64,000 nt of DNA from Schmidtea nova (taxonomy: Eukaryota). Under the pieces are notes generated by a model. It was not told the DNA's origin. It was given only the letters and a program-made list of their open reading frames with translations, and made no database searches. This document shows, in pieces, positions 22,967 through 45,000 of the stretch; within the stretch, counting starts at the first letter, position 1; the number at the start of each line of letters is the position of its first letter. Position numbers and translations under genes: made by a program. The DNA lies in assembly GCA_044892505.1 (NCBI GenBank), contig CM097882.1, positions 219,294,001 to 219,358,000 of the forward strand, read 5' to 3'.

Positions 22967-25900
22967 ATGGATTTTTTAGATATATTTGATGATGGTCAAC
23001 CCGAAGTTTTAGTTGAAAAGTAAAATGAAAAATTATTTTTAAATATAAAAGTACTTGATTTTAGCAATGACAATGCTTCACGAAAACGAAAACTTGACGA
23101 TTATTTAGAAGAATACGTCGATAAAGCTTCAGATATCGAAGAAAAAAAAACCAAAGTTGATGTTTCCGATTTTAAAAATCCTTTAAATGAAATTCTTTTA
23201 AAAACTATTCACATTAAAAATTGCATTCACGAAGTGGTTTATCCGAAAAATATCACATATAAACCATTGAATAAAAGAAATCCAATCCCAGCTAAAGAAT
23301 TCAGTTTTACCCTCGATTCATTTCAAAACCAAGCTGTCCAGTGTATTGAAAACAATCAAACCGTTCTCGTATCCGCCCACACATCTGCCGGTAAAACTGT
23401 TGCAGCTAGGTAATGATTTTTATTAAAACTACAATTTTTTAAAAATTGATTTAAATATTAATTATAATTAAAAAATAGCTACACAATTGCTTTATGCATC
23501 AAAGAGAAACGACGAGTCATCTATACGACTCCGATAAAAGCATTGAGTAATCAGAAATATCGAGAATTTAAAGAAGAATTTGAAGATGTTGGTTTATTAA
23601 CCGGTGACGTTACAATCAATGGCAACGCCAGTGTATTAATTATGACAACTGAAATCCTCCGGTTGATGCTCTATCGTAATTCATCGATTATTAAAGAAGT
23701 TGCATGGGTTATATTCGATGAAATTCATTACATGAGGGATAAATCTCGAGGAGTAGTGTGGGAGGAATCAATTATATTGTTACCTCCCTCAATGAGAATG
23801 GTATTTCTGAGCGCTACTATACCAAATGCTCGCCAATTTGCCCAATGGATAGCCCATTTGCATAAACAGCCTTGCAATGTCATCTATACCGATTACAGAC
23901 CGACGCCTTTGCAACATTACATATATCCAAACGGAGCCGATCGAATATATCAAGTTGTCAATGAGAAAGGCGAATTCCTCGATGACTATTTCAATGAAGC
24001 AATGGCTGTGTTGAGGAAATCCGGCGACAATTCCAAAAACGACATGGAAAACCTAGGCCGACGTGGCGGAAATAAAGCCATTGAGTCACACTGTGAAACG
24101 CTGATTAAGAAGGTTTTCGATTTGAAAAAAGATCCAATTATCGTGTTTTCATTTTCGAAAAAATCCTGCGAACAATACGCGAAGATGTTGAGCAAATTGG
24201 ACTACACGTCAAGTTTATTGAAATTTAATTGATTTCCCGTTGTTGATAGTTATCATTAATTGATTCAACAGAGTCGGAGAAAGAGAAAATCGAGTTGATA
24301 TTTTGTAACGCCAGAAATACTTTGCCGGAAGTTGATAGAGTCCTGCCACAAATCGATGCAATGCTGAATCTGGTACGGCGGGGAATCGGCATTCACCACG
24401 GAGGTTTGATGCCGGTTTTGAAGGAAATCGTTGAAATTCTATTCTGCGAAGGCTTGATTAAATGCCTATTTGCTACGGAAACCTTCTCTATGGGTCTCAA
24501 TATGCCCGCTAAAACTGTTATTTTCACATCGGCAAATAAATTTGACGGTGTAAACATTCGGATGGTAATTTATTTGCACCTTCCGCATGACTTGTAGAGT
24601 TTTATTGGCCTACTTTTGGATTCTAGATTACATCGGGTGAGTACATTCAAATGTCCGGCAGGGCGGGTCGTCGAGGTCTCGATACGAATGGGAATGTCAT
24701 TCTGATGCTTGACAGGACAATCCAAAACGAAGACGCAAAACAAGTGATCAAAGGTGCAACGGAACCGTTGAATTCGTCATTTCACTTGACCTACAACATG
24801 ATTATGAACCTGATGAGAATAGAAACAATCAGTCCGGAATATCTGATGGAGAATAGCTTCTTTCAGTTTCAAACATACGCAGAATTGCCCAATTTGATAG
24901 CCGGTAATGATGATGATTATTGATTTATTGTATTGGATTCTATTGTAAATAGGACTCGGAGAAAAAGAGAAACTATTGAACGAGATCTCTCTTACCAACC
25001 AAGAATATCTTTCAATCGGGTCACATTATCGGCTGGAGAAATCGCTCAATTCCGTTAGGGAACAGATGTGGTCCATAATAAGGAATGAGAGCACTTATCG
25101 GCCATTTCTTATTCCTGGTCGACTGGTTCATGTAAGTTATATTGACTTTGAATAACCACCTAGTTTTCCGTCAAAGTGTAACGTTGGTACTGCAACAAAT
25201 AGGATGACATTATAAATACAACTGATCGTCGAATCAATTGAAACTATAATTGACCCAATGTCACAGGTGGGTCCAAGGGCGACCGACAGTACAATGTTTT
25301 TTACGTTGATTTCACTAAAAATTATAAATTAATTTATAATCTCCATAATAAATCTCAATTTTTTTACTGCAAAGCAATTGCTTCTCAAATGGCTTTTCGC
25401 TTTTCATTCTATAAATTATTGATACTCTCTCTAAAACCTACATGTGACATTTATTGAACTTTTTCATTTTTCGTTTTAATGTCTAGTATTAAACAGTATG
25501 ATCTAATTGGATATTAGAGTTCCTTCACAGTTTTCGACAATTATAATTCAACAATTTTAGACCGTATATTTTTACAATACTAGTTTTTCAAAGCCTTAAA
25601 AACAATTTTCTCAACCGCTTCAATGCCAATAGATTAATAAATCAATTATTTGAAAAACAGTCTGTTTATAGTATCATCAGGTCCAAATTACTGCAGAAAC
25701 AAACAAGTTCCGTTACGCATCCACTTTCCCATAATTTTAAACAATAATTTTAAACCTATTTAATTCTATTGGCCTGCCAACAAGTTTTACTGCAGCTATT
25801 AGTAAAACATTAAAGAACAACTTTCTTGAAAAAAACTTTTACAAACGTTTTCCTAGTATTTCACAAACAAAAGTCAGCGGAAATCATGACAGATACATTT

Positions 25901-26608
25901 AGGATATTATAATTATTAATAATTCCATTTCCAGGTCAAATATAATGAAAATGATTTCGGTTGGTGTATTTTGGTATCAAAATTACAAAGTGGAAAATTC
26001 AAATCAAAGTTTGTCGAATGTATTGTTCCAGTGGCACACGAAAGCATTTTTGCGAAAGAATTATCAATGGCTACTCCATCACCAAAACACGAAATGCGAC
26101 CCGACGGAAATTTATTTGAAATTCAATTGAACAATATTTATGAATTATCATCAGTTGTGATTGATTGTTCTGATATATTGTTGAATTCATTGAGGAAAAA
26201 TGATGAAGCAAGAAAAGAGTTTCTGAATAAACGAAATAGTATCATTGCTCGATTTAACGAAATTCTTTTGGTGGATTTGAAAAAAGATCTTAAATGTAAA
26301 CCCGATAAAATCAATGAATTTGAACAGGTGAGCTTTATTTATTAAAAAAATAGAAAACAGATTTATTTATTGTTATATTGAATAATAATATAATATTATA
26401 ATAACTTTTTGATATTAATTATTTATAAAAATTAATTATTTTTTATTGTAATTTATAATAATAATAATTAATAATATAATGATAATAATTAAAAGTATAA
26501 TAATAATTATAAAAAAATAATAATAATAACAATTATAATAATACATAACACAGCAGACATGGCAATAAAATAATTAAAAACAAACGCCAATACAAATATA
26601 TATTTTGC

Positions 26609-26703
<95 letters not shown>

Positions 26704-28452
26704 GGCGTTTGTTTTTAATTATAATAATAATAAAAATCATAGTAAAAATTATTTAAAAAAATTATAATAAAAATTATAATAAAAATTATTAAAAAAATTA
26801 TAATAAAAATTATTAAAGAAATTATAGTAAAAATGATAATAAAAATTATTAAAAAAATATAAAAAAAATTAATAAAAAAAATTATAATAAAAATTATAAT
26901 AAAAATTATTAAAAAAAATATAGTAAAAATGATAATAAAAATTATTAAAAAAAATATAATAAAAATTATAGTAAAATTATTAAAAAAATTATTAAAAAAA
27001 TTATAATAAAAATTATTAAAGAAATTATAGTAAAAATGATAATAAAAAATATTAAAAAAATATAAAAAAAATATAAAAAAAATTATAAAAAAAATTATAA
27101 TAAAAATTATAATAAAAATTATTAAAAAAAATATAGTAAAAATGATAAAAAAAATTATTAAAAAAAATTATAATAAAAATTATTACAAAAATTATAATAA
27201 AAATTATTAAAAAAATATAGTAAAAATGATAATAAAAATTATTTAAAAAAATATAATAAAAATTATAGTAAANNNNNNNNNNNNNNNNNNNNNNNNNNNN
27301 NNNNNNNNNNNNNNNNNNNNNNNNNNNNNNNNNNNNNNNNNNNNNNNNNNNNNNNNNNNNNNNNNNNNNNNNNNNNNNNNNNNNNNNNNNNNNNNNNNNN
27401 NNNNNNNNNNNNNNNNNNNNNNNNNNAAAATTATTATAAAAATTATAATAAAAAAATTATAATAATGATTAAAACAGAATAAAAACAAAAGATCTGCTGA
27501 TGCCTGAATAATTGCATTTATTATATTTTTAAAAATGAAATCACGCCAGAATCATATCAAACTGTAAACTAATTGTCAAACTCATTCAGAAAATCAGAGA
27601 AATACAGACCCAAATTGAAAGTCATCCCATGTTTAAGCATGAAAATTCTCTAGAACTGATAAATTTATATCACAAAAGATTAGAAGTGAGAATTATAGAA
27701 ATGGAAAAAAATGTCTTAACACAAATGTCTTTAGTATGAAGGAATTATCGAAAAATTGAGAGCAGAAATCAACAAAAAAGTTTCTCTCATTAAAATGGAC
27801 GAGTTAAAATGCCGAAAAAGAATTCTGAGAAGATTTAAATTCTGCACCGATACCGATGTGATTACGATGAAAGGTAGAATTGCCTGTGAAATCTCCACAG
27901 GCGACGAAATAATGCTTACGGAATTGTTACTCGACGGGGAATTTTCCGCCCTCACTGGAACGCAATTAGTAGCCTTCTTGTCGTGCTTCGTATTTGAGGA
28001 ATTCGTTAAAGAAATAATCGAGCCTCAAAATGATCTCGACAAGAGTCTAGAGAAATTGAAAGAACTCGCGAGACATATTAGTCGTACGAGTAAGGAATGC
28101 CGATTGGATGTATATCCTGCTATTGACGAGAAAGCTTATGTGGAAAGCTTCAAAGTCGGATTGATAGAAATCGTCCGAGCGTGGGCAAAAGGATCGACTT
28201 TCTTAAAATTGTGTGAAAACACAGAAGTCTATGAAGGGAGTATCATCAGATGCATTCGACGGTTAGACGAGTTGTTAGGCCAGCTTTATGAGGCCTCCAG
28301 AGTTATCGGGAATATTCAGTTAGAAAAGAAATTCGGAGAAGGTATGCATTTGTCTGCTTGCTTATCATGTTCTTTACCAATTTATTTCAGCTTCACAATT
28401 GATCAAACGTGGAATCATATTTTCATCTAGTCTTTATTTGAATGACAAATAA
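22967..28452 (+). CDS. MTREX: Exosome RNA helicase MTR4; join(22967..23019,23065..23409,23479..24212,24272..24564,24627..24903,24953..25131,25935..26327,27590..27685,27735..28341,28391..28452), 1012 aa
   Basis: [62 protein letters not shown], arch/KOW (PGRLV..V...DFGW), [27 protein letters not shown] and the C-terminal [13 protein letters not shown]. All introns are GT-AG and the exon sum of 3039 nt stays in frame. Confidence 0.95.
25160..25290 (-). repeat. Fragment of the 7935-8160 / 18090-18303 repeat inside an MTR4 intron
   Basis: tgtaacgttg.ta.tgcaacaaat...gaaactat.att.acc...gggtccaagggc.accga matches 8030-8150. Another fragment lies at ~5980-6105. Confidence 0.6.
26612..27460. repeat. 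(TA)n microsatellite (26612-26697) and AT-only minisatellite (aaaaattataat-type units) in MTR4 intron 7
   Basis: Seen directly; interrupted by an N gap. Confidence 0.9.
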
Positions 28453-28612: not shown

Positions 28613-29590
28613 TGTCCAAGATGTGTTTCACAAGAAAGATCTGAAAACATTTAAAATTAGGTTTTATTACCGAGTTGCATAGAAAAACAAATCTACTTAA
28701 ATAAATGCTACTTAGAAATGACATTAAAATCTAATCAAAAAATCGGAAAGATTAAAGATGATTGACAGCGAATTGAGAGTGTATCTATCTAGCAACGGGA
28801 TTTTGAGTTTTTTTAGTGTGCCTAATAAACTACTCCTTCGAAACTGGGGTTTGCAAAACCGTGTTTCTTATAAAACCGGGATCTTAAAGAAAAAAATAAA
28901 ATCGCCAATATAGCAATACCTTCCTTAGAAAACGCTATTAAATAAAGATTATTTCATTTTTATTTTTAATTCAGATACAAAATTAACTAAAACCGGGTAC
29001 GATTTATTAAAATAGTATAAATAAGTAAAATATTGATAAGTAAAAAAATGTTTACAGAAAATGTTACTCTTTCTTTTATAAGTACTAAAGCATTTTTCGA
29101 CGTCCAAGATGTGTTCCACAAGAAAAATCTGAAAACATTTAAAATTACTTAGGTTTTGTTACCTTCGAGTTGCATAGAAAAACAAATCTATAACTTGTTT
29201 TTCTTTCTTCACAATGCTACTTAGAAATGACAAATCTAATCAAAAAATCGAAAAGATTAAAGATGATTGACAGCGAATTGAGAGGGTACCTATCCAGCAA
29301 CGGGATTTTGAGTTTATTTAGTGTGCCTAATAAACTACTTCGAAACTGGGGTTTGCAAAAACCGTGTTTCTTATAAAACCGGGATCTTAAAGGAAAAAAA
29401 TAAAATCGCCATTAAATAAAGATTTTTTTCAGTTTTATTTTTAATTATAATTTAGATACAAAAAGAACTAAAACCGGGTACGATTTATTAAAATAGTATA
29501 AATATAGATAATTAAATAAATGTATACTGAAAATTTTTCTCTTGCGAAAGAGTAATTCTTTTATAAGTACTAAAGCATTTTTCGACTTTT
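28613..29590. repeat. Imperfect tandem duplication of a ~490-bp unit covering the 3' end of the hAT relic
   Basis: gtccaagatgtgtt...agcaacgggattttgag...aaaaccgggtacg...gtactaaagcatttttcga occurs twice (~28613 and ~29102). Confidence 0.85.
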
Positions 29591-30481
29591 CACCAAGACG
29601 ACTTCTAATTTCATTGAAATAATTTTGTGATATAGAAAAGCTTTTTTCTGAGTCCGTTGAAGTTGGTTTGCATTGAAAACCACTTAAGAGCATTGAAAAG
29701 CAATTCTACTTGTTTTTTCTTTGTTGCTTTGAATAAATTACATTCTTCTAAATGTGTCAACATTAACAATATCTTGTGATATTTGCAACATCATTATTCA
29801 CATTTGTTATGGTAATCTCACATTCCTCACCATCTACCAAACTTTTTGGTTCTGATTCCATTTGAAAAATCTTTTAATCTTTTGCCAAAATTAAGTATTT
29901 CCGTTTTCGACAAATATGGCAGAGAATGATTGATTTGGTTTTTGCATTTTGATTTTTCAAATATTTCGCCTAAGGTACTAAATTAATATTTCTACGTTCT
30001 TGAACCCTGTTTTTTAATGAATTGAATAAACATTTTTCCTGATTTCCACATTTAGCTGATCAATTTTATTCAATATAAATTTTATTATGGTTTTGGTTGT
30101 AGCGTCTTTTTGTCCCAAAGCTTCCACTGCTACTTGAACGGGTGACAAAGCATCACAAATCTCTTTAAACATTATTTCAGAAATATAGAGCATATATAAT
30201 TTTTGTAAATCATCCATTGTTTTTTTTACACAATCACTGAGTTTTAAAAATCGTTGGATCATAAATAGTAAAGTATTCCAAAGAGTTTTAGAGTCTAAAA
30301 TTAGTTCAATCTCAACATTGAACGTTTGTTTTACATACTGATGTAAAATTGTGTGCGTAAAGGGGAACGCTTGAAAAATGTTTTAACCTTGCGAACAGAA
30401 TTATTACATACTTTGAATGAAATGTCAGAATATTCAACTTCATAATGTTCTTCATTTCCGAGTTCATCAAAATATTGGATA
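29445..30481 (-). pseudogene. hAT transposase relic, C-terminal half
   Basis: MIQRFLKL...LSPVQVAVEALG..DA, and the dimerization domain KPTSTDSEKSFS......IRSRLGEKSKNAL. Confidence 0.8.
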
Positions 30482-31640
30482 TGTTGAGGTTCCAAATATT
30501 TGCTATTTGCAATCTCAACTTGTTATTGGGGTGATTCGTATATAAATATCAAAAACAAAGTTTGCTTCAAAATTTTATTAATACAATAAAATTACTTTTT
30601 ATTCCGTTTACAATTAATAACTCAAATTCTTTATCACACAATTTTTTTAAAAAGAAAAAGTCGTGTCAAATCAATTCTTGTAATTGAACCTATTGGGTGA
30701 CTGCTATGTAGTGCGTGCTATATTTTATTTGTGGATCCAATGTTTCTGATCCGGGTTTTAATAAGTTTTTCAAGATTTCCTTGAAAACTCGATATTGCGC
30801 AGATTTTAATTCTTTAGTTTAAAATTAGATTTTAAAGCTATGCAATTTTTTGGGCGTTTTTTCTGATTTTTCCATCAGCTTATATAGTAAATTTTTATCT
30901 TGTTCGCCAATCATATAATTATATTAAAATATTTATATTTCAATCGGTCTTTTTAACCATCATATAATTATATTTATTAAAATATTTATATTTCAATCGG
31001 TCTTTTTAACCGGATTTTGTTTATTTTATCTGGCTCAATATCTAGAATAATATCTAGAATTTACATCTTGTCGTTTTACAATTTGCCGTTATCTAAAATT
31101 ATTATTTTTTATTAAATAAATATCTAAAATTTACAATTTGCCCTTTTTAATATATTATTATCTAAAATTATTATTTTTTATTAAACAAAAATTTATTATC
31201 TACAATTTGCCCTTTTTAATATATTATTACTTCACATCTCATGCACTGTCATATTTTTATTTATACAGATATATTACCTTATAGATTTTTACACAAATAT
31301 ATATATAAAATTCAAATGATAATATACGGAATATTTATGAAATTCAAGTACAGAATAATTATATACACTTCAAATACAGAATAATGACACTCATATACAA
31401 AATTTAAAAGTATATTAAATAATAAAGTTGTGATCACATAAACATAGTCATATAGTGATTATTTGAGGCTTTGTTGGCTTTGATTGAAGAAGGGTGATTA
31501 TTTGAGGCGATTGAAGATGGAGTCTGCATTATTTTCGGACTGGGTTTCTGCATATATATTAACCCTGTATCGATTAGGCCCTGTCCTGTAATATTTGTTC
31601 AGGGTAAATGCTTGGATGGGCTTCCCTCGATCATCCAACA
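30482..31640 (-). repeat. 3' LTR
   Basis: Direct repeat of 43238-44396 with the same 12756 offset at both ends; contains internal tandem duplications. Confidence 0.97.
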
Positions 31641-33450
31641 TTCCTCCCAGGGCCGTCAAAGTAATGTCCTCATTACCTTTTTCGCTCAGGACCATTTCAA
31701 TTTCTTTATCCTTTAATTTCATTACTGTTCTCTTGAATCCTTTCTTGATTGCAAGATTTAGGGTATCATCTTCCTCAATTCGTCTTCCGAAATGGGTACA
31801 TAATTGTTTTTCCGTTATCTCTTTTTGGTCGGCACCTATAATGAAGCTAGGTTCTTCCTCCTCTTCTATTTCCATTTCAATGTCTGGTTCTGGTCCTAAT
31901 TCGTCTTCTGCTTTTATTTTACTCTCCATTTCTTTTGTGAAGTTTTCTTCGTCGTTTTCCTCAACTGAAAAATACTCTTCGTCCGAATCTAAATCGCATA
32001 TGTCTTCTCTTTCTTTGTATTTTTGTATTAGTTGCGGTTTGTTTTTAATCATTATTTGATTTTCTGGTGGTCCTTCTTCTTTTGTAATCATTAGGTCATC
32101 ATCACTATCTTCATGTATTGTTTCTTCCATATCTGAATTTTCATCCATTATTATACTTTCTTCTTCGCTTTCCTTCAACTCTTCCATACATGATTTTCTG
32201 TTTTGCATCTGGTATAGGTCTCCTTTCATTTCGATATCGTCTGTTATTGGTGTATCACTTTGTAATGATGTTGAAGCTGCTGAATTCCATTTTATTATAG
32301 GTTCCCATTTGTCTTCTACTATTCCATATATTACCTTTAATATTGTTGTTGTCTTTCTGGCAGAAAATGGCTCACTTTCTACTAATGCTTCATTCAGTCT
32401 CTTATCTTTGTACCATCTCTTATGGTATTTAATCACTTGGTAAGCTAAATTGGATAGCTTAATTTTGAGTGGATCCACGTTTTTCACGAATGAGCACATA
32501 AATTTATCTCCGGCCATTTCTCTCATTCCTGCAATGTTGTCTAGACCAAATGTTAGCATTTTTAATTTATCTATCATGTCAAATCCTATGATTATTTTTC
32601 CCCACAACAGCTTTCTGATATCCAATAGCGCCTGGTACTCATCTTCATTTCCGACGATACTTTCTTTATTAATCATTGTTTTTTCTGTGCAGAAGTTTTT
32701 TATCTTCGTTCTTGGGGTTATCTTTTTGTTGTATATAATTTCACCGTTGTACTTTCTTATACATACTTCTACTGGTCGCTTGTTGTCATTTTTATCAATT
32801 GCAAATTTTGCATCCATGAACATAATTAGTTGGTGTCTCTCTTCTGTGGATAATTCATTGTGTGTGAAAGGTATTTTTTCATTTATCCAGCTTTGATTGT
32901 ACCAAGGTTTTGAAGGGATTGGCGGCATTGATTGGAATGGATTTGATATCAGAGGGATATAGAGTATCTCGATTCCTATGACACACGGTAAGTTGTTCAT
33001 TTGGATTATGAGGTGATTAAAATCGTCTGGCATACTTCTGTTGTTTGTAATTGTTTTGATGATGATTGAACAATTACTTGTTGTGATTATTGGTACTTTA
33101 TGTTGGCAAATTGATACCTCGGTTTTTGTCATGTGGAATAGGATTCTATGTGGTATTTTTTTCCCTTTGATTACCGCTTTGTCGACATTAAGATGTTTTT
33201 CAAATGTGCCGATTAGGTCTTTTAGTTTTGTTCGTCGAGCTTCATTAAATTTGATAATGTGTAGTTCTCTTTCTTCAATTTCCACTTTCATATCATTTGG
33301 GATGCATACTTGGTTTGGGAAGCTTCTGATTGTGATTGGATTTCCATCGGTACATATTTTGTTTTGTAGGGTTTTGTAAAAGTTTAGAGGATGTTTGTTG
33401 ATCATAGCCACATAGTTCATAGGTCGAGAATAATTTGGCTCTGATTGCAT
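31498..33450 (-). CDS. ORF3 (650 aa from ATG 33450): degenerate REXO4/ISG20-like DEDDh exonuclease domain, acidic tract, C-terminus encoded in the LTR
   Basis: LIMFMDAKF...EVCIRKYNGEIIYNKKITP..KIKNFCTEKTMI...LL.GKIIIGF..LKML...KLSNLA follows the REX4/ISG20 pattern. The track's extra 50 N-terminal aa come from the 45-bp repeats. Confidence 0.75.
   Translation of the reverse strand: MQSEPNYSRPMNYVAMINKHPLNFYKTLQNKICTDGNPITIRSFPNQVCIPNDMKVEIEERELHIIKFNEARRTKLKDLIGTFEKHLNVDKAVIKGKKIPHRILFHMTKTEVSICQHKVPIITTSNCSIIIKTITNNRSMPDDFNHLIIQMNNLPCVIGIEILYIPLISNPFQSMPPIPSKPWYNQSWINEKIPFTHNELSTEERHQLIMFMDAKFAIDKNDNKRPVEVCIRKYNGEIIYNKKITPRTKIKNFCTEKTMINKESIVGNEDEYQALLDIRKLLWGKIIIGFDMIDKLKMLTFGLDNIAGMREMAGDKFMCSFVKNVDPLKIKLSNLAYQVIKYHKRWYKDKRLNEALVESEPFSARKTTTILKVIYGIVEDKWEPIIKWNSAASTSLQSDTPITDDIEMKGDLYQMQNRKSCMEELKESEEESIIMDENSDMEETIHEDSDDDLMITKEEGPPENQIMIKNKPQLIQKYKEREDICDLDSDEEYFSVEENDEENFTKEMESKIKAEDELGPEPDIEMEIEEEEEPSFIIGADQKEITEKQLCTHFGRRIEEDDTLNLAIKKGFKRTVMKLKDKEIEMVLSEKGNEDITLTALGGMLDDRGKPIQAFTLNKYYRTGPNRYRVNIYAETQSENNADSIFNRLK
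31641..31650 (-). other. Polypurine tract
   Basis: Minus strand reads ...CTGGGAGGAA immediately before the TGTTGG start of the 3' LTR. Confidence 0.6.
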
Positions 33451-33465
33451 TGTTGATTGAAGACA

Positions 33466-33606
33466 CAAGAATCGGGATATTGATTGATAAGTTAGTAAAT
33501 AATAAAACACTAAGAATCGGGATATTGATTGATAAGTTAGTAAACGATAAAACACTAAGAATCGGGATATCGACTGATAAGTTAGTAAACGATAAAACAC
33601 TAAGAA
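33466..33606 (-). promoter_or_regulatory. Three 45-bp tandem repeats carrying branch-point and 3' splice-site motifs
   Basis: Minus-strand unit tgttttatcgttTACTAACttatcaatcaatatcccgaTTCTTAG. TACTAAC at plus 33491, 33536 and 33581; AG at 33510, 33555 and 33600. Confidence 0.6.
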
Positions 33607-33886
33607 TATAGATTGATAATGAGATCGAGATATGATTTTACGACTTGATTTGTGATTGGATTGAAAATTGGAACGATTTGATTGGGAGTTGGTTTGATTG
33701 TTTTGATTGTGCTGAGGATTTGATGTAAAACTGGCTTTATTGGGTTGTTTGTCAAATGGGTGACTTGTTTTTCTAAAAATAAAATGTAAATTTTTATGTT
33801 GAGAGCGTATTTCAGGTTTAACCTTATACGCTATTTTCTAGATACAGATATATGTGATTTTAATATATATTATTGACCAATTTAAC

Positions 33887-36800
33887 TTATACCAATGTGG
33901 ACCTCGAATATTCACCTGGTATATATTTAGCCAAATGGAAATGCCCTGGTACATTTCTGACCAGTTGGCTCCGATACCGCTGCCTTTTCCATTTGTACTT
34001 TTTATAAATTTGTACGCTAGTTATTAAAGCTAAAACTGCTAATGCTATTATTGATGTTGTGATGACATAAAAAGGCCAATGTGGATTTTTATCTTTTTTA
34101 CGAAATGCTTGTAGTTCCTCTAAGTTATGTATCACTATTGGTCTTCCTTGCCTTATTTTGATAGGTTCTTGTTTTTGTTTTTTGGCATTGTATTGTTTTT
34201 GGAGTTTGGCTATTCCAGTGCTTGTTGGTATTTCGTTTGTATGTAGTGTGGTATTTAGTCTATTATTTGATGTCGTTGTTGTGCTTTTTATTCTATCGGG
34301 TGTTATGTTTTGGTTTTTTATTATATCCTTGGGTAATTGTTCTGTTTTTATCTTTTTGCATCTCCATGTTGTTGTATCTGTGTTTCTCTGTATGCAGATT
34401 CTATATATTGTATTAGGTGTTAGTTTTGTGAAATTAATATAGTTTCCTCTTTCGATTTCGTTGGTTGTTCTGTCGTCCTTTCCTTTTATCATCTTTGGGT
34501 TTTTCCCATTCGTTGTTTGCATGTATAAATCAATTACTCCTCTATTTATGATAAATGCTCTAACTTCGTTTGTTGATATTTTTATTAATACTCTGTCAAA
34601 TTCTATTGTTTCGGTTGAGCCAACAATTGTTATGATTGTTAAGAAGATAGCCGATATTATTAGTTTGTTATGAGATCTTAGATTATACTTGTGAGGTTTA
34701 TCTATCGTGACCTCGGCTTCCGCCAACTTGCATCTGTTGACATGTACTACTATTGGATCCTCGTTTTTATGCTTTTGTAAATGTAAATTCTCATTTATTA
34801 CTTTTACTACTTCATATGGACCTTTATATGGTCTTGCTAATTTTGTTGTCTTTCCCTTTCCTACTTGTGGTGACATAAGTCTAACCTTATCACCTACTTT
34901 AAAGTTGTGTGGTTTACTATTTTTGTCGTAGTCGGCTTTGTATTGTTCTTGTCTATATTTGACTTTTAGATTGGCTACTTTATACACTTCTTGCAGTTTT
35001 TCCTGCATTAGTGTGACATAATCTGGTGCATCTAAATATTGTGATACTCGAGGTTCAAATATTGTATCTATTGGTGTTGCTGGCTCTCTTAAAAACATTA
35101 AATAATAATGCGAATATCCTGTTGTTTCGTTTGGAGTGATATTATGAATGTATGTGCATTGACTTATGTATTCGTCCCAATCATTTTGATTTTTTCCTAC
35201 AAAAACAGCTAGTCTGCTTAGTAATGTCCCATTAAATCTTTCTACTAGTCCATCAGTTTGAGGGTGATACGCTGTTGTGTTGATCTTTTGCATGTTAAAA
35301 ATATTAGCTACTCGTTTTATTAATTCACTAGTAAAATTTGTTCCTTTATCTGTTAATAATCTTTTGGGTGTGCCTATCTTGAAAATAATTTTTTCTATAA
35401 GCAATTTAGCAACTGTTTCTGCTGTTTCGTCTTTTGTTGGAAATGCTTCTGCCCATCTAGTAAAATAATCACTAAATACTAGTATATGTTTATTCCCATT
35501 AATTGTAGTAGGTAATTTACATAGAAAATCCATTGCACATAGTTCCATTGGTGATGTTGTTGCTGGAATGGGGTGTAACGGCGCTTTTGTTTTTGTACCT
35601 GTATTTTTTCTTGTTGCACATATTGTACACGCGTTACACCATCTCTTAACATCTTTTTTTAATTCTTCCCAGTAATATTTTTGTAATAATCTACTTGCTG
35701 TCTTTCTAGATGATAAGTGACCTCCTAATGCTCCATCGTGATATTGTAGTAGGAGTATTTGTCTTAATTTCTGAGGTACTACTATTAATTGCTTACCGTT
35801 GAAATCTTCTATTACTACTAATTTCTTTGATATTTTATATTTTGAATTGTTTTCTTTTCTGATTTCATTCCTTATTTTATTGATCTCTGGGTCTTTCATC
35901 TGTTCCTCATTTATATCTATTGGCTTTTCTGCTACTAGTGCAAATATTTCAAGTGCTCCTAATTCTGGTATTCTTGATAGTGCATCTGCGTTTTTATTTA
36001 TTCTACCTGGTTTATATATAATTTTTAGGTGCATGTCTTGTATTTTCATTGCCCATTTAAGTAATCTACTTGATGTATCTTTATGTTTCCATAAGCCTTC
36101 TAATGGTTTATGGTCTGTTCTTATTATCACTTCAGTTCCGTAGATGTATGGTTTGAATTGTTTTAGGGCAAATACTATTGCGTAACATTCTTTTTCTATT
36201 GTTGAATACCTCAGCTGTGCTCCTTTTAATGTTTTACTGGCATATGCTATTACGTAATCTTTCCCTTTCTCTTCTTCTTGGCCTAATACTGCTCCTACGG
36301 CTTTCCCGCTGGCATCCGTCATTACTATAAATTGTTTTTCGAAATTTGGGTATCTTAACACTGGTGCTGTTATCAATCTTTCTTTTAGTTTGTCGAATGC
36401 TTCTTGATGTTCTTTTGTCCATTTCTTTTGTATCTTGTTAACTTTATTGTTAATTTCTTGTACTATTAACACGTCTTTGCATTTTCCTTTTGTTTTAATT
36501 CCCTTTGTTAGTTCTATTATAGGTGTTGCTATCTTTGCATAATCTTGTATGAATTTACGATAGTATCCTGTTAAACCTAAAAACCCTTGTACTTGTTGTA
36601 CTGTTTTTGGTATTGGAAATTTCTTTACAACTTCTATTTTTTCTGGATTTGGTTTTATCCCTTCTACTGTGACTATATGCCCTAAAAATAGTGCCGAAGA
36701 CTCTGCCCATTTACATTTGGTTGGTTTAATTTTTATCCTTGCTTTTCTTAGTCTCTCAAGTACGTTTGTTATATCTTTTAGATGTTCCTCGAATGTCTTT

Positions 36801-39800
36801 GATGATATTAATATGTCATCCATGTAAACTGCGCAGTGTTGTACATTTACTAATATTGTGTTCATTAGACGTTGAAATGTGGCTGGCGCATTAGTTAATC
36901 CGAAGGGTAATCGTGTGTACTCATATAAACCATCTTCAATAACAAATGCTGTTTTCTCTGCATCCCCTTCTTCCATTTGAATTTGCATATACCCCTTATT
37001 CGCATCAATGACTGAAAAATACTTAGCATCCCTAAGTTTATCATATTGCTCTTGTGCTTTTGGGAATGGATATGAGTCTTTTACTGTTACATCATTTAAT
37101 TTACGATAGTCAATGCACATTCTTATTTCTCCATCTTTCTTTTTGACGGGTACAATGGGTGATGCCCATTGTGAAAAACTTTGTTTTATTACACCTGCGT
37201 CTTTTAATTCTTTAATTTGTCGCTTTATCTCTTCTCTTAGTTTATATGGTACGCTATATGGTCTTTGTTTTATTGGTCTTGCATTGCCCGTATCTATTAC
37301 ATGTTTGATTATGTCAGTATCTCCTAAATCAAATTCATGTTTTGCAAAAACATCGCTGTTATCATCTATTAGTGTCTGTAATTGTGCTTGTTGTGTTATT
37401 GTTAGGTATTTATTATTGATTTTCACTTTGTCGTATGATTTTATACTATTTGTCTTACTAGGTTCGACCACTCTTTTGCCGTTATCATTTATCACACTTG
37501 TCTCGCTGACTTCATACGTTTTCTCTAATTTGCCTTTGAATAGTTTTCCCAATTTTGTGCCTTTGTGTATTTTTATATTACTTTTTTCATAATTCGCTAT
37601 TCTTAATGGGATTATTCCCTTTTTTGGAATTACGCATTCATTAGTTAACATTATATTTTGTGTAATTGCCGTTTCTGGCTCGAAAATAAAAGTGTCCTCA
37701 CTTTTGACGTTAACTTTTATGGGGATTATATGATCACACTCATATTCTAATTCGAATGCTTCTAATGCAACAACTTCCGTGAACTTGGACTTATGTTTGA
37801 TAGCTTTTCTTTTAATCGTGTTATCCGTTAAGTCTATGATGCAGTTATTCAGCTTGTTGAGTATATCGATCCCTAGTATACATATGCTATTGCATTCTTG
37901 TACTACTTTAAATATGTGGTGTATTACTTGTTCTGATGTTTCAACTACTAATTCAATATCTCCTTTTAGTGGAATGTAGTGTGCTGATAGTGTTACTACT
38001 TTATCCGTTGTTTTCATAATATTTCTCTTTTGACCATCTGTAAGTTGATCTTCCCTAATCAGGGACGTTGCTGCTCCAGTATCTACTAGTGCATTTATGA
38101 TTATATTGTTTATAATTATTTTAAGTCTTGGCCTTGCTTCGTTTGCTGTCTCTAATTGCTCCATCATTTCGACTTCCAAGCTATAACAACCATATATTTT
38201 TTTGGGTTCACAGTAACAATTCTTACTTTCTCTAGGAATTTTAATCTCTATATTTTCTTGTAACTCTTTTAATTGTTCTCTTTGGTTTTCGTATAGTCCT
38301 TGTTGTGGTGCATTTCCTTCATGTGATATCTGCGTTTTAACTATTTCCTCATTGTTTTCATCATCTATCAATATTTGCCTTTCTTCATTCCTTTGGATTT
38401 TTATTAAACGTATTTCTTTATCATGTTTTGCCGTAATCAGGTATTTGGCTACAAACGGGCATAAACATGCTAGTAATTTATATGAATTTCCGAATACTTG
38501 TTTCAGCTGTCGTAGTGATACTAAAGAAGAACAAACCATTTTTAGTAAAGCAACCGTATAGTAAATTCCCAAAATTGTAGAGAACATGTTTCCAAGGACT
38601 GCAAAATATCCCCATATACTATATAATACTTTATATGCTACTTTTTTGAAATATTCTTTTGATAACAACACGTCAAAATTGTAATTTCCTCCGTAACTTC
38701 CTTCGATAACTTTGTTTACCATTATTGACAGTATTCTTTCTTTTTCGTTTGGGAATAACATGTGTTTTCTTGCACTTTCTATAGCTTCTCTCGTATATAT
38801 GCCATTGCTATCCATATCGTTGATTTCTTTAAACTCCAATCTTTTTTCAAGCTCTATGAGTTCTAATTTGAGTGGTTTCATCGCCTCTTTCCTATCTGAC
38901 ATAGATATCCACATTTCGTCATTTATTTTGTATAATGGATCTAATAAATTAGTGCATTTTTCTATTTTTCTTGGTACATATGTTTTTTCTGTTAGTATTC
39001 TAGTAATTGGTTGAAGGTATACCCTTTCTCCTTTGTATATTACTGGTAACTCATTTGTGCACTGATTGTTTGTTGCCAATGATACACTAACAGGTTTGCA
39101 TTGAAATGTCTGTATCACTTCTCCTACTATCCTGGCAAATGTTCCTTCTTCTGAGAAGATTATTGGTGCCATCAAATCTGGGTTTGTTACCACGACTGCC
39201 ATTTTTGTCCTTAATATTTCTCTGTTGAGTTTGCAATCGCTCATGATTGTTGATTGATATACTTTATCTAATTGCACTAGTTGATTATGATAGAAAAAAT
39301 CTATTTTATTGTTGAAATATGATGCGAGTTTGACGTCGAATTTATTTACTTTTTGTTTTGCATCTTTGACTTCTTCTCTACTTATGTATATTCCTTCATA
39401 ATTAGTTTGTATTATTTCCTTACCACATTTTACACTTTTCCTTTTTCTAACGAACCTCATTGCTTCGTTTTCAGATTCTGACATATATATTGTTGGTGTA
39501 TCTTTTTCTTGTACAATTGTTGTTTTTCTTTTTTGATCTCTCACTCTTTTTGAGTCTACATCTGTGAACTGTTTCCCTTTGATTTCTCTAAATTTTAATG
39601 ATTTTAATTTTGTTAATTGGCAATCGTATTTATCTATTTTATATATTAGCATTGATTCTCCTGTATCGCAATATGATTCTTCTAATGTACAAAATTTGTA
39701 TATCATCATTTTCTTTGAGCTGCTGTCAAATGATGCCTTGAATTTTCTTAGTTCTACCATGTAGTGCCTTCTTACTACAACATTACTGAGTTTTTCACCC

Positions 39801-41695
39801 CATACGGTATACTCTCCTCCTTCACAATAACCCCCTTTTGATGTCCATCCCACAATATTTACGTCCTGTCTCATCTTTGCTCCTATTCTTGCTTCTAGCT
39901 CGATTCCTTTGTGACCGCTATATTTAGCTTTCTTTGTTTTAAATGCCTCTTCACACTCCATTGGTGATAATATTACTGCTTCTGGTGTCCATGTGGGTTT
40001 TAAAACTGTTCTTGCCCCAGCATGGCATATATATGCTTCCTCCTGATACTTTATGATGCACTCTTTAGCTTCCGTATGAATAAAATCTGATTCTTGATAA
40101 ACATGAAACATTTGAGGCTCTGACATGATTAATTTAGTTGGATTTGCTTCTGGGCAATTTTCGACATCCAACAATGAATATTTTTGTCCCCATTTTGGCT
40201 TTTGACAATCATATGCTATTATTGCATTGCTACCCTTAATTAAATCTAATAATAATGTTATTATTACTATTACTGTGGAGGTTATCGATTTGTTTTCTGT
40301 TTTCTGTTTTATTGTTGTTTTCTCTATTAATTGTTTTATTACTTTATCTGTATCACTTTCTTTGTTTGTCGTATCCTCATCATATAATATTTTCCATCCT
40401 CCTTTCATTTTTATCCATGGTATTGCTTCTACCTTCAATTTTTTATACATCATCGTTACCACGTTGTCTAATTGTCCTTTTGGATTTTCCTTTATAATTT
40501 TTTTGTATCTTGCAGCCAAGTATGCCATGGCCGTTATTATTCTATCTTTATCTATCCCTGTATTAAACAGGATCTTTAATACTGTTTTTTCATCTGCTTC
40601 TTCTGTGGCTAGTCTTTTGGTATCTTTTTTAATTAGTTTCATTTTTTCTGTTATGTTTTCTATGAGTACCGTTGGTCTTGTTTCTGGAAATAGCTTAATA
40701 TCCATGACTTTTATTATTTCTTTTATTTTATTTATGTCGTTGTTGTCATCTTGGTATTCTAGTGTTTCATGTCTTTGTTTGTTTGCGATTTCTTTTAATC
40801 GTTCCGCTGTTTTTCTATTGTCCGATTTTTCTATTATTTCTGATTTTCGAGGTCTTCCTCTACCTCGTTTTGATGTTTCTGCATCTTTTGTTTTTGCTTC
40901 GTCAGCTATTCTTTCTATTGTTTCTTGTAGGTTACTATATTTTTCATCTATAGGTTTAAATATAATTTCTTCATCCCTTGCTGATTTCTTTGTTTCGCTA
41001 GGTGATTTATCCCATAGCCTAAATAATCTATCAAAATCGTTTTCTTCATTTATACTCAGTTCAACCGACGGTACTGGCGTCACTATCTCATCGACCATTC
41101 GTTTTTCTATTGTGGCTACCACAATATTATCACTTACTGGGTTTATCCCATAATCGATTAAATACTCGTCACTCAATAATTCTATTCCGTTAAAATATAA
41201 TTTTATTACATCTTTCTCTCCTATGGTTCCTGGCCATTTGGCTCTTACCGTTCGTTTTAATTTGCTCACTTTAGTGCAGGGATGTACCCTTTGTTTGTTT
41301 CTGGAAAAGTAGTTATCGTTTGATTCAATCGTTACATTTAGTGTTTCATGCAGTCTTTCATTTTTTCTTATATATTCTCCATAACATTTTAACATCTCTT
41401 TTATTTCTATTTCTAATTCAAATATTTTCGTTATATTTTGCCTCTTTACCATCATTGGTATCAAATTTCTAAGCTTATCTAATTCAATCCCATTAACTTG
41501 TATTTTATTGATTATTCTCAGTGTTTCGTTATCATCAAATGGTTGTTTATACAATATCTCTTTAAATTCTTCTATCAATTCTTTTTGTTTATTTTCTTCT
41601 GTGAGAAATATTTCATCTGCTTCTCTAATTTCTTTTAACTCATCATTATCGATATCTACTTCATTTGTAAAAGTACTAAATTCATTTATAGACAT
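33887..41695 (-). CDS. pol: 2602-aa polyprotein: UBL, AT-hook, Bcl-2-like, signal, chuvirus-like glycoprotein, TM, aspartic protease, RT, RNase H, integrase, signal, FN3-like, TM
   Basis: LVDTGA (D at 38083), YMDD (36815-36826), TDASG...TDHKPL, H-H-C-C zinc finger, DDE core, GPY module. Accessory domains are detailed in the findings. Confidence 0.95.
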   Translation of the reverse strand: MSINEFSTFTNEVDIDNDELKEIREADEIFLTEENKQKELIEEFKEILYKQPFDDNETLRIINKIQVNGIELDKLRNLIPMMVKRQNITKIFELEIEIKEMLKCYGEYIRKNERLHETLNVTIESNDNYFSRNKQRVHPCTKVSKLKRTVRAKWPGTIGEKDVIKLYFNGIELLSDEYLIDYGINPVSDNIVVATIEKRMVDEIVTPVPSVELSINEENDFDRLFRLWDKSPSETKKSARDEEIIFKPIDEKYSNLQETIERIADEAKTKDAETSKRGRGRPRKSEIIEKSDNRKTAERLKEIANKQRHETLEYQDDNNDINKIKEIIKVMDIKLFPETRPTVLIENITEKMKLIKKDTKRLATEEADEKTVLKILFNTGIDKDRIITAMAYLAARYKKIIKENPKGQLDNVVTMMYKKLKVEAIPWIKMKGGWKILYDEDTTNKESDTDKVIKQLIEKTTIKQKTENKSITSTVIVIITLLLDLIKGSNAIIAYDCQKPKWGQKYSLLDVENCPEANPTKLIMSEPQMFHVYQESDFIHTEAKECIIKYQEEAYICHAGARTVLKPTWTPEAVILSPMECEEAFKTKKAKYSGHKGIELEARIGAKMRQDVNIVGWTSKGGYCEGGEYTVWGEKLSNVVVRRHYMVELRKFKASFDSSSKKMMIYKFCTLEESYCDTGESMLIYKIDKYDCQLTKLKSLKFREIKGKQFTDVDSKRVRDQKRKTTIVQEKDTPTIYMSESENEAMRFVRKRKSVKCGKEIIQTNYEGIYISREEVKDAKQKVNKFDVKLASYFNNKIDFFYHNQLVQLDKVYQSTIMSDCKLNREILRTKMAVVVTNPDLMAPIIFSEEGTFARIVGEVIQTFQCKPVSVSLATNNQCTNELPVIYKGERVYLQPITRILTEKTYVPRKIEKCTNLLDPLYKINDEMWISMSDRKEAMKPLKLELIELEKRLEFKEINDMDSNGIYTREAIESARKHMLFPNEKERILSIMVNKVIEGSYGGNYNFDVLLSKEYFKKVAYKVLYSIWGYFAVLGNMFSTILGIYYTVALLKMVCSSLVSLRQLKQVFGNSYKLLACLCPFVAKYLITAKHDKEIRLIKIQRNEERQILIDDENNEEIVKTQISHEGNAPQQGLYENQREQLKELQENIEIKIPRESKNCYCEPKKIYGCYSLEVEMMEQLETANEARPRLKIIINNIIINALVDTGAATSLIREDQLTDGQKRNIMKTTDKVVTLSAHYIPLKGDIELVVETSEQVIHHIFKVVQECNSICILGIDILNKLNNCIIDLTDNTIKRKAIKHKSKFTEVVALEAFELEYECDHIIPIKVNVKSEDTFIFEPETAITQNIMLTNECVIPKKGIIPLRIANYEKSNIKIHKGTKLGKLFKGKLEKTYEVSETSVINDNGKRVVEPSKTNSIKSYDKVKINNKYLTITQQAQLQTLIDDNSDVFAKHEFDLGDTDIIKHVIDTGNARPIKQRPYSVPYKLREEIKRQIKELKDAGVIKQSFSQWASPIVPVKKKDGEIRMCIDYRKLNDVTVKDSYPFPKAQEQYDKLRDAKYFSVIDANKGYMQIQMEEGDAEKTAFVIEDGLYEYTRLPFGLTNAPATFQRLMNTILVNVQHCAVYMDDILISSKTFEEHLKDITNVLERLRKARIKIKPTKCKWAESSALFLGHIVTVEGIKPNPEKIEVVKKFPIPKTVQQVQGFLGLTGYYRKFIQDYAKIATPIIELTKGIKTKGKCKDVLIVQEINNKVNKIQKKWTKEHQEAFDKLKERLITAPVLRYPNFEKQFIVMTDASGKAVGAVLGQEEEKGKDYVIAYASKTLKGAQLRYSTIEKECYAIVFALKQFKPYIYGTEVIIRTDHKPLEGLWKHKDTSSRLLKWAMKIQDMHLKIIYKPGRINKNADALSRIPELGALEIFALVAEKPIDINEEQMKDPEINKIRNEIRKENNSKYKISKKLVVIEDFNGKQLIVVPQKLRQILLLQYHDGALGGHLSSRKTASRLLQKYYWEELKKDVKRWCNACTICATRKNTGTKTKAPLHPIPATTSPMELCAMDFLCKLPTTINGNKHILVFSDYFTRWAEAFPTKDETAETVAKLLIEKIIFKIGTPKRLLTDKGTNFTSELIKRVANIFNMQKINTTAYHPQTDGLVERFNGTLLSRLAVFVGKNQNDWDEYISQCTYIHNITPNETTGYSHYYLMFLREPATPIDTIFEPRVSQYLDAPDYVTLMQEKLQEVYKVANLKVKYRQEQYKADYDKNSKPHNFKVGDKVRLMSPQVGKGKTTKLARPYKGPYEVVKVINENLHLQKHKNEDPIVVHVNRCKLAEAEVTIDKPHKYNLRSHNKLIISAIFLTIITIVGSTETIEFDRVLIKISTNEVRAFIINRGVIDLYMQTTNGKNPKMIKGKDDRTTNEIERGNYINFTKLTPNTIYRICIQRNTDTTTWRCKKIKTEQLPKDIIKNQNITPDRIKSTTTTSNNRLNTTLHTNEIPTSTGIAKLQKQYNAKKQKQEPIKIRQGRPIVIHNLEELQAFRKKDKNPHWPFYVITTSIIALAVLALITSVQIYKKYKWKRQRYRSQLVRNVPGHFHLAKYIPGEYSRSTLV

Positions 41696-42988
41696 TTAAA
41701 GCTTTCTCTCAATAAGTCTTCCATATTGCGTTTTAAATTCTTTTAATTCTTCTCTTAATATGTTTATTTCTTTATTTGCTGATTCAAGCTCAGCGCTATT
41801 TACCTGCTTTATCTCAGGCTCATTTTTAAATCTTACTCTTATCGGTGAATCTGCTCGTGGTTTATTACATACCTTTGCTAGGTGACCATACTTTTGGCAA
41901 TTGTAACACTTTATTTGTCCATTAAAATTCACTTTATCCCTACCCTCATTATTATAAGTATTTCGCCTCACTGGGCTATCTTGTCTATTTCTCGAATTAT
42001 CTCTATATCTATTATCTCTTCTATTATATTCGAAGCGACTATCTCTATTATTTCTATTATATCCACTGTAACTGTTATAACCAGAACGATTATCTCTAAA
42101 ATTATCTCTGTTGTCTTTATCATTATTTCTGTCAAAACGATTGTCTCTAAAACTATCTCTATTATTATTCCCTTTATAGTTATCTTTAAAATTATCTCTA
42201 TTTCTATTATCAAAATTTTTATTTCCTGAACTGTTAAACTTTCCCTTGTTTTCAGGTGATTGGCTTCTATTAGGACTAAATTTTCTTCTATTATTAACAA
42301 AATTCAAATATAATTGTTTCATTTCTTCCCAAGGGATACTATCATCTTTATTTTTCAACTCAGGTTTTACCTCAAGTTGCTTTTCAATTTCTACAGCGTC
42401 TATCTCTGGTCTAAATCGATCTCTTTGTATTGCTTCGATACGTTTTGCTTTTTGTACTAATTCATTTAAGTCTTCATATTCAATCGTAATTAATGCTTTG
42501 TATAAATATTTTTGGATTCCGTTCCAAAACTGATCCTCGATTAACCTACTAGTGTGATCTCCTGCACCAAATGCCTTTTTTGCTAATTCTGTTATCGTGT
42601 ATATATATTCACCTACTGATTCTCTTGCTCCTTGGTATCTACTTCTAAATTTTTGAACATTTATTTTTTGTAAGTCTCTATCTATTACTATTTCTTTTCT
42701 AAGGTTTGTAACTAACTCTTGATAATTAATGCCTTTACATGCTAAATTATTGTATGCTTGTAATGCATATCCTTTTAAATATAATGGAATTCGTTGTTTT
42801 AATTCATTTGTTTTCCATCCGCAAGCCTCTGCATATTGTGCGATTTCGGCAAAAAAGTCGTCGAACTTTTCAGGGTCTCCTTTATATGATTCTATTGGTA
42901 GTGTTTTTATAAAATTATGATTACTGTTGATGTTGTCTGTATTGCTGTTACTTCAACTATTATTGCTGCCTGTACTATTATTACTCAT
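41696..42988 (-). pseudogene. gag: gag (430 codons) with an in-frame TGA at codon 12
   Basis: ATG 42988 MSNNSTGSNNS*SNSN... followed by an open capsid-like region (YKGDPEKFDDFF...W...RYQGARESVGEY), an RD/N-rich tract and a zinc knuckle CYNCQKYGHLAKVC. Confidence 0.88.
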
Positions 42989-43217: not shown

Positions 43218-43235
43218 TCCCGGTTCGCGGCACCA
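43218..43235 (-). other. Primer-binding site, most similar to tRNA-His
   Basis: TGGTGCCGCGAACCGGGA, 2 nt after the 5' LTR. The TGGTGCCG start matches His-tRNA 3' ends; the tRNA identity is inference. Confidence 0.8.
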
Positions 43236-43237
43236 AA

Positions 43238-44396
43238 TGTTGAGGTTCCAAATATTTGCTATTTGCAATCTCAACTTGTTATTGGGGTGATTCGTATATA
43301 AATATCAAAAACAAAGTTTGCTTCAAAATTTTATTAATACAATAAAATTACTTTTTATTCCGTTTACAATTAATAACTCAAATTCTTTATCACACAATTT
43401 TTTTAAAAAGAAAAAGTCGTGTCAAATCAATTCTTGTAATTGAACCTATTGGGTGACTGCTATGTAGTGCGTGCTATATTTTATTTGTGGATCCAATGTT
43501 TCTGATCCGGGTTTTAATAAGTTTTTCAAGATTTCCTTGAAAACTCGATATTGCGCAGATTTTAATTCTTTAGTTTAAAATTAGATTTTAAAGCTATGCA
43601 ATTTTTTGGGCGTTTTTTCTGATTTTTCCATCAGCTTATATAGTAAATTTTTATCTTGTTCGCCAATCATATAATTATATTAAAATATTTATATTTCAAT
43701 CGGTCTTTTTAACCATCATATAATTATATTTATTAAAATATTTATATTTCAATCGGTCTTTTTAACCGGATTTTGTTTATTTTATCTGGCTCAATATCTA
43801 GAATAATATCTAGAATTTACATCTTGTCGTTTTACAATTTGCCGTTATCTAAAATTATTATTTTTTATTAAATAAATATCTAAAATTTACAATTTGCCCT
43901 TTTTAATATATTATTATCTAAAATTATTATTTTTTATTAAACAAAAATTTATTATCTACAATTTGCCCTTTTTAATATATTATTACTTCACATCTCATGC
44001 ACTGTCATATTTTTATTTATACAGATATATTACCTTATAGATTTTTACACAAATATATATATAAAATTCAAATGATAATATACGGAATATTTATGAAATT
44101 CAAGTACAGAATAATTATATACACTTCAAATACAGAATAATGACACTCATATACAAAATTTAAAAGTATATTAAATAATAAAGTTGTGATCACATAAACA
44201 TAGTCATATAGTGATTATTTGAGGCTTTGTTGGCTTTGATTGAAGAAGGGTGATTATTTGAGGCGATTGAAGATGGAGTCTGCATTATTTTCGGACTGGG
44301 TTTCTGCATATATATTAACCCTGTATCGATTAGGCCCTGTCCTGTAATATTTGTTCAGGGTAAATGCTTGGATGGGCTTCCCTCGATCATCCAACA
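43238..44396 (-). repeat. 5' LTR
   Basis: Direct repeat of 30482-31640; no difference found by eye. Confidence 0.97.
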
Positions 44397-45000
44397 GATA
44401 TCACAATCAGATTCATTGAATTCGTTTGTTTCTATTCTTGCTTCACTATTCGAGAAATGTCTGTAAAGCCAAGATGTACTCATGGTTCATATATAGGATA
44501 ATTTCATCTTCCGATTCTTTTCCAAATTTAATATTTACTGATGCTCCGTCACATGTGACCACAATATCAATCAATTAGTTCCCTCGTTATTTATGAAACA
44601 CAACTTCAGTGTATGTGAATTAAACGCAAATTTATAAATTCTAAATCGGAATTATAAAGGTTCAGGAATCTTCTGTCCGTAAGCTTGTCCACTCATCAAA
44701 AGTTGATGATAATTTTTTGAATTATTTTGATTTGATTTTTGCCTTAAGTTTATTTTTAATTATGGATCTGGGTCATTTATTGATTCACGAATAAAGATGG
44801 ATCTAGTAATTTGTCTTATCGACTAACCATCTAGAGCAGCTAATCTGGATATGATTTCTTCAAAGCTTGTTCGTGGCACAAACTGCAACAAATTAGATTG
44901 AAGACAGTTTTTTTTGAAGTTTTGGCTTTTGGCCCTACATTGACAGTCTCTTTTAATAAATTGTCGATTTTTTTAAATGTTTTTTTTAGATTTTTAGATG
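44397..45000 (-). pseudogene. hAT transposase relic, N-terminal half (split from 29445-30481 by the Gypsy insertion)
   Basis: Minus strand reads SFEEIISRLAALDG, FINLRLIHIH and IVVTCDGASVNIKFG, matching the TDGAS motif of this hAT group. Confidence 0.7.

Follow-up and report, generated by a model that had tools for sequence, protein, structure and literature searches.

An env-bearing Ty3/Gypsy element of Schmidtea nova carries a two-domain accessory protein with a conserved, apparently dead REXO4-type nuclease fold

A 64,000-nucleotide stretch of Schmidtea nova contig CM097882.1, referred to here as the window, raises the question of whether a retroelement has taken up an RNA exonuclease fold and kept it after its catalytic residues were lost. 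A preliminary description had placed such a domain at 32320-32835 within a Ty3/Gypsy element. The minus strand there does give a stop-free stretch of 172 aa, part of a longer frame that holds the stated domain, and this frame (ORF3) lies, as proposed, inside an LTR element with protease, RT, RNase H and integrase by Pfam. The element covers 13,915 bp of the minus strand and has the following parts:

30482-31640, minus strand: 3' LTR, 1159 bp, TG...CA, identical to the 5' LTR
43238-44396, minus strand: 5' LTR, 1159 bp, identical to the 3' LTR
30478-30481 and 44397-44400: 4-bp target-site duplication GATA, flanking both LTRs
43218-43235, minus strand: primer-binding-site-like 18-mer with TGG at its start
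31641-31648, minus strand: short polypurine tract before the 3' LTR, inside ORF3
41696-42988, minus strand: gag with a zinc knuckle
33887-41695, minus strand: env-pol polyprotein, 2602 aa, in frame right behind the gag stop
38288-40276, minus strand: env, Monjiviricetes-type fusion glycoprotein (PF24664, E = 6e-89)
34727-38140, minus strand: protease, RT, RNase H and integrase in Ty3/Gypsy order (Pfam)

The two identical 1159-bp LTRs and the target-site duplication indicate that the insertion is recent. Gene order on the minus strand is gag, then env, then protease, RT, RNase H and integrase, then ORF3, and the features of a GAG-ENV-POL Ty3/Gypsy errantivirus are present (LTRs, primer-binding site, the order from protease to integrase, and env between gag and pol). 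Against a table of tRNA types, the primer-binding-site-like 18-mer scored 9/12 to the Phe/His class. Gag and env-pol share one frame, with a stop between them and an early stop inside gag; the terminal gag stop is followed directly by the env-pol ATG (41698-41693, minus strand). The early stop, at 42955-42953, is the 12th codon from the first ATG of the frame, so this copy may not be autonomous and its own activity is doubtful. A decayed coding remnant (29500-30480 and 44397-45100) is the apparent insertion site; by eye it presumably resembles a hAT-type transposase, and Pfam gave no match on its 30017-30382 portion.

ORF3 and its surroundings comprise the following features, with residues counted from the ATG at 33450:

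31498-33450, minus strand: ORF3, 650-aa accessory gene (ATG at 33450, stop at 31498)
33463-33607, no strand given: 45-bp tandem repeat, 3.2 copies, with acceptor-like AG sites, immediately before the ORF3 ATG
32941-33426, minus strand: double-stranded beta-helix (cupin / 2OG-Fe(II) oxygenase-like) domain, aa 9-170
32293-32829, minus strand: DEDDh (ISG20/REXO4-type) pseudo-exonuclease domain, aa 208-386
32814, 32808, 32568, 32367 and 32352, minus strand: catalytic columns D213, K215, K295, F362 and T367, respectively
31834-32193, minus strand: acidic low-complexity tract, about aa 420-539

The ORF3 ATG is the first downstream of the pol stop. The interval from pol to ORF3 contains acceptor-like sites and is free of other ATGs, and from this arrangement we infer that the ORF3 message is spliced. 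The final 47 codons are inside the 3' LTR. Elsewhere in the window, a remnant at 49448-49594 (plus strand) encodes protein 55% identical to this LTR-encoded end and is probably a piece of a related LTR.

By computation, ORF3 is a compact two-domain unit consisting of a cupin/2OG-oxygenase-like barrel and an ISG20/REXO4-type DEDDh fold, with an acidic tail behind; neither canonical metal site is present, and the protein is conserved across divergent relatives. A model of aa 1-400 reached a pLDDT of 89.9 and a pTM of 0.89, compared with 75.8 and 0.71 for the barrel modelled alone from a different alignment of 47 rows, a difference consistent with the two domains packing together. Pfam returned no family at E ≤ 1 for the ORF3 protein and none for either domain submitted separately. 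Weak Pfam matches in the last 120 aa (E 0.03-0.05) were dismissed as noise. PADLOC found nothing on ORF3 and gave generic DEDDh matches for two intact relatives.

That the second domain has the REX4/ISG20 DEDDh fold, as first described, is almost certain. A single-sequence search with the window protein reached only E ~0.001, to ISG20L2/ISG20; given this weak match, we base the assignment on the family profile, the Atlas search and the predicted fold. The profile (71 rows) matched ISG20L2 (E = 3e-32), ISG20 (4e-23), SDN1 (9e-17) and Pan2 (1e-4) in the PDB. The top three Atlas matches were RNase_T clusters (scores 0.91-0.93), with 'RNA exonuclease 4-like' among the top names. ISG20 was also the best match to the model (Foldseek E = 1e-8; Z of 18.7 and rmsd of 2.3 Å over 160 residues on full alignment), and the prospect that structure searches would reveal no DEDDh fold was thus not borne out. 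Pfam RNase_T gave a divided answer, since the window protein had no match at E ≤ 1 but 33 of 72 relatives matched PF00929 at E ≤ 0.01. The ORF3 domain is 18-20% identical to ISG20/ISG20L2, and its capture from a host REXO4 is plausible.

We checked the register of the catalytic columns with a profile built solely from 35 intact relatives. It matched the window domain over the same five columns at E = 3e-34 and 113.6 bits, against 12.2 bits for the best of 500 shuffles and the reversed sequence, and had no match in any other frame or place of the window. A basic insertion of 12-13 residues precedes ExoIII in the window protein, and for this reason the ExoIII register rests on the downstream helix. 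With the register taken from the sequence profile, the catalytic D-E-D-H-D set reads D, K, K, F, T, leaving one canonical residue of five. The motif readings of the preliminary description (ExoI D213-A-K215, K295 for the ExoII acid, and F362...T367 for ExoIII) are reproduced, as is its long acidic tract, with 69 D/E and 34 K/R in the 265 residues behind the domain. Its conclusion that the enzyme is dead also appears sound: on these replacements, the window domain, of net charge +7, has very probably lost canonical activity.

Searching 1.84 billion representatives yielded 72 relatives at E ≤ 0.001. The alignment contained the query and 71 of them (72 rows), P0073 being left out as it matches the LTR-encoded end only; P0064 was also omitted from the family profile. 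All five catalytic columns are covered in 55 of the 72 rows, and 17 fragments were set aside. The complete set of residues is present in 35/55 rows (16 DEDHD and 19 DEEHD), every one with the ExoIII His, while the other 20 keep two or fewer and none keeps three or four. Independent loss at each site would predict about 36 rows with three or four residues, although kinship and the choice of a dead query bias this count. P0064 itself has a dead-type nuclease fold followed by a C-terminal RING finger, a putative fusion that may be a gene-model artefact. No relative was found in prokaryotic genomes; among longer forms (1732-4945 aa) no fusion was found, which is weak evidence. A GIRDL-type motif is specific to the family. 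Of the 73 proteins in the set, 72 begin with Met, and both domains are often covered by a single predicted protein, a pattern that, among relatives known here from proteins alone, would fit intronless mobile genes. Neither gag nor env-pol of this element matched any of these 73 proteins at E ≤ 0.05, so that comparison provides no linkage to retroelement genes.

Is the dead form a decaying relic, that is, a once-active cargo gene drifting to loss? Dead rows do sit on longer branches, and the nuclease ORF3s of rotifer elements show no significant departure from neutrality (PMC5408684). Set against these points are the high-confidence fold and a frame that stays open for 650 codons, inside an element whose LTRs are identical. 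The two closest relatives, moreover, carry the same D, K, K, F, T as the window protein and are 62% (117/189) and 53% (100/189) identical to it across the nuclease-fold domain, but only 34% (48/142) and 23% (33/142) across the acidic region; from this difference, together with the common substitutions, we conclude that the dead domain is constrained. Loss is also targeted to the columns of the pocket, and the 20 dead rows preserve the scaffold: R247 (19/19), D270 (20/20), G308 (20/20), R310 (20/20) and W382 (19/19) are retained, whereas S228, D291 and L292 persist in only 3/20, 4/20 and 3/20, compared with 34-35 of 35 intact rows. Retention of the scaffold with loss of the pocket therefore suggests a pseudoenzyme that is being maintained and not one in decay, and the pattern would fit selection on the fold with the pocket released. 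A relic is accordingly a reading to which we give the least credence.

The same columns bear on whether the domain might still cut with a switched active site of the kind suggested for Maelstrom. Active-site switching has been described for a DEDDh derivative (PMC2628886), D213 and D291 remain, and H343, which flanks the insertion, is common to the window protein and its two closest relatives. The dead rows, however, hold no new invariant set of His, Cys or acidic residues apart from D270 at a helix start, and two metal-ligand positions are occupied by lysines, making a non-canonical nuclease very unlikely.

How often the change of state occurred was addressed with a tree of 48 rows, chosen from the 55 for barrel coverage and with the active-site columns removed. 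It contains five changes between intact and dead, only two of them forced by strong branches. A single dead clade was rejected with all rows (p-AU 0.016) but no longer so after two long rows were dropped (0.11). In the domain-only tree of all 55 rows the deep nodes are weak.

The barrel, a domain absent from the preliminary description, matched a prolyl-4-hydroxylase with a Z of 10.9 (rmsd 3.6 Å, 153 aligned residues), and all 50 listed rows of the fold search are of the double-stranded beta-helix class, with likeness to prolyl hydroxylases, AlkB proteins and cupins. The top ranks are tied and favour no one subfamily. Foldseek placed cupins at E ~2e-4, with viral AlkB-type domains also among the fold matches, and Atlas gave no usable match to the barrel domain. 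The HxD/E...H metal triad is absent: none of 47 rows has both parts, with segments placed by inference from secondary structure. An active AlkB or hydroxylase role was ruled out by the missing triad. The barrel thus appears to be metal-less even in relatives with an intact nuclease, and in the window protein both domains look like pseudoenzymes. Vaccinia C16 N-terminal domains were among the fold matches of a model of ORF3 aa 1-195 (E = 2e-3); these domains are inactivated 2OG-oxygenase folds that the virus uses as binders.

Conservation in the barrel (H106 in 41/47 rows, E/D161 in 43/47), and the better retention of N52 (15/15) and R61 (14/15) in dead rows, would suit a protein in which the nuclease fold is only a structural partner, with no nucleic-acid role, and function lies in ligand or peptide binding by the barrel or in the tail. 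The lower confidence with which the barrel folds alone points the same way. In the tail variant of this reading, a motif resembling a phospho-FFAT site would tether the protein to VAP at the ER:

31957-31977, minus strand: phospho-FFAT-like motif EYFSVEE behind the acidic run, a lead only

This has the core as defined in PMC7705450, of seven residues with S/T as the fourth, preceded by an acidic tract, and VAP binding is putative. Such motifs occur in 5 of 44 tails against 0.2-0.4 expected from shuffles (0.4 for block shuffles), a count in which the pattern was fixed after four of the five cases had been seen and three of the five are close kin. The other 39 tails have no motif and several intact relatives have almost no tail, and we regard a purely structural role for the nuclease fold as unlikely.

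Our best guess, held tentatively and by analogy, is that ORF3 acts as an adaptor on the element's own RNA. An ancestor would have acquired a REXO4-like nuclease, which in most lineages presumably remains an active 3'-5' exonuclease; in the window lineage, cutting would have been lost and a binding role retained, for which the barrel and nuclease surfaces away from the old pocket would be chiefly responsible. Translated from an mRNA that is spliced or subgenomic, the protein could bind the element RNA or its RNP and aid the survival, nuclear exit or delivery to assembly sites of unspliced genomic RNA. As the weakest step of the scheme, the lysines of what was the metal pocket may, in this sub-lineage, still bind an RNA phosphate.

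The RNA shield of the preliminary description would be favoured, for the window sub-lineage only, by K/R in the ExoI Glu column, the +7 domain and the basic insertion before ExoIII. K/R occupies this column in 14 of the 23 rows without Glu. Glu-to-Lys is an easy substitution in AT-rich DNA, so the recurrent Lys need not mean selection. We also considered and rejected the proposition that dead forms are more basic: the difference (p = 0.003) was gone once the active-site columns were removed (mean +2.9, against +4.3 for intact forms; p = 0.24). Decay of the pocket and the lack of extra basicity argue against a family-wide 3'-end shield acting through the old pocket. Varying pocket residues across dead clades and the unraised charge outside the active site would likewise count against the adaptor reading.

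A second part of the earlier proposal was a decoy or antagonist of host RNA decay or silencing, in which the dead nuclease would imitate a host DEDDh enzyme and occupy the partners or substrates of that enzyme. The DEDDh ExoN of arenaviruses suppresses innate immunity; the intact/dead split without intermediates would fit a switch between destroying and sequestering a trigger; and a probable Bcl-2-like segment in the same element suggests host-modulating cargo. Since the pocket decays in dead forms, and identity of 18-20% to ISG20/ISG20L2 makes mimicry of a specific host partner surface less likely, we rate a decoy as rather improbable.

The Bcl-2-like segment is one of two additional parts of the polyprotein:

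40388-40588, minus strand: probable Bcl-2-like segment spanning BH1-BH2, before the env signal/anchor
34022-34663, minus strand: post-integrase extension with a hydrophobic segment, fn3-like stretch, Thr-rich stalk and transmembrane segment

BH1 through BH2 align without gaps over 67 aa (Pfam E = 1.1e-5; 26.3 bits against a cut-off of 31.4), and PDB matches are nearly all Bcl-2/Bcl-xL (best E = 0.11), so a Bcl-2-like domain probably precedes env. A literature search, with most subscription papers outside its reach, found no report of such a domain in these elements. A hydrophobic segment behind it (polyprotein aa 470-488) could double as env signal and tail anchor. The post-integrase extension looks like a small type I membrane protein from its predicted segments; its fn3-like stretch is weak (E = 0.15) and it had no PDB match. 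About 370 aa of polyprotein before the Bcl-2-like segment (40589-41695, minus strand) have no family assignment, and within the first 299 aa there are an AT-hook-like motif (E = 0.09) and a weak SUMO-like match (E = 0.011).

The domain of ORF3 shares its DnaQ-like RNase H fold and the spacing of ExoI-III with DEDDh enzymes of the ISG20/ISG20L2/REXO4 type (PDB 1wlj, 7yw5), from which it differs in the replacement of four of five catalytic residues, the barrel fusion, the GIRDL-type motif and its location in an LTR element. The claim that no such Ty3/Gypsy cargo was known holds only in part. In rotifers, Juno/Vesta LTR retrotransposons encode ORF3s of the DEDDy type whose residues are intact (Rodriguez et al. 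2017, PMC5408684), and nuclease cargo as such has therefore already been published. Juno/Vesta and the window element share a DEDD-superfamily nuclease as an extra ORF after pol, and the DEED variant of the rotifer proteins is also present in 19/35 intact rows here. Juno/Vesta ORF3s are, however, RNase D-like, DEDDy-type and intact, in mostly env-less elements, whereas the window ORF3 is DEDDh-type, dead, barrel-fused and in an env-bearing element. Our literature search, which reached few subscription papers, found no report of cargo that is DEDDh REXO4-type, barrel-fused or dead.

An exonuclease-like domain may be present in C. elegans BEL/Pao Cer elements, which the literature search did not bear out. 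Elements of the NERV clade, which belong with the GAG-ENV-POL errantiviruses, have one continuous gag-env-pro-pol frame. For this clade, Sacco et al. 2022 reportedly give as accessory ORFs either a small hypothetical one or a Upf1-like helicase, and the hypothetical ORF could overlap the ORF3 family. Among Ty3/Gypsy errantiviruses, the gag-env-pol order is on record from nematodes, bryozoans and flatworms (Chary and Hayashi, PMC13524379). These resemble the window element in this order and in a class III-type glycoprotein; the main text makes no mention of an exonuclease ORF, and a term search of the seven supplements, with long cells truncated, gave no match.

CERV of C. elegans Cer1, needed for gRNA export (PMC10309623), occupies the same position in its element and also has a pseudoenzyme domain, but its folds differ from those of ORF3 (a pseudo-GTPase and a ring-forming M domain). 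Its likeness to the adaptor reading would thus be a functional analogy alone. Reuse of the DEDD fold for RNA binding or viral immune evasion is known from Maelstrom and EXD1, both catalytically altered, and from arenavirus NP ExoN. The first two are host proteins and the third is active and Zn-binding, and none has a barrel of the ORF3 type.

That ORF3 contains a conserved pseudo-nuclease within a two-domain accessory protein we regard as real. Hardly any accessory gene of an invertebrate LTR element has been characterised, and CERV is among the few with a mechanism. The ORF3 family supplies natural active and dead versions of one two-domain protein, and a non-cutting role of the nuclease fold is therefore directly testable with unaltered proteins. 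Were ORF3 to protect or route element RNA, or block silencing, it would explain the persistence of env-bearing retroelements in animal germlines and indicate which host pathway such elements have to overcome. A bolder reading, which we consider possible but doubtful, is that of a widespread, undescribed accessory family of invertebrate env-bearing Ty3/Gypsy elements. Its members would combine a metal-less cupin barrel with a REXO4-type nuclease that exists in discrete active and dead forms and has switched form more than once, and would be deployed against host RNA surveillance. If true, the element, with its Bcl-2-like module and post-integrase membrane protein, would amount to a 'complex' retrovirus-like agent of invertebrates, equipped with captured genes for host control in a design resembling that of lentiviral accessory genes.

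The rest of the window contains three host genes with few introns, all on the plus strand: an MTR4 helicase (23024-28430), which has a long AT microsatellite and a 12-bp array inside it at 26455-27471, a TM2-domain gene (19477-20127) and a C2-domain gene (4281-5135). Two diverged copies of one repeat (32-1913 and 46918-48569) hold two ORFs each, with no convincing Pfam match, and two decayed Ty3/Gypsy pol remnants lie on opposite strands within 59468-63698. A perfect 98-bp inverted repeat is located in a very AT-rich block (52273-52471), and several dispersed inverted-repeat pairs at 7938-18839 are MITE-like.
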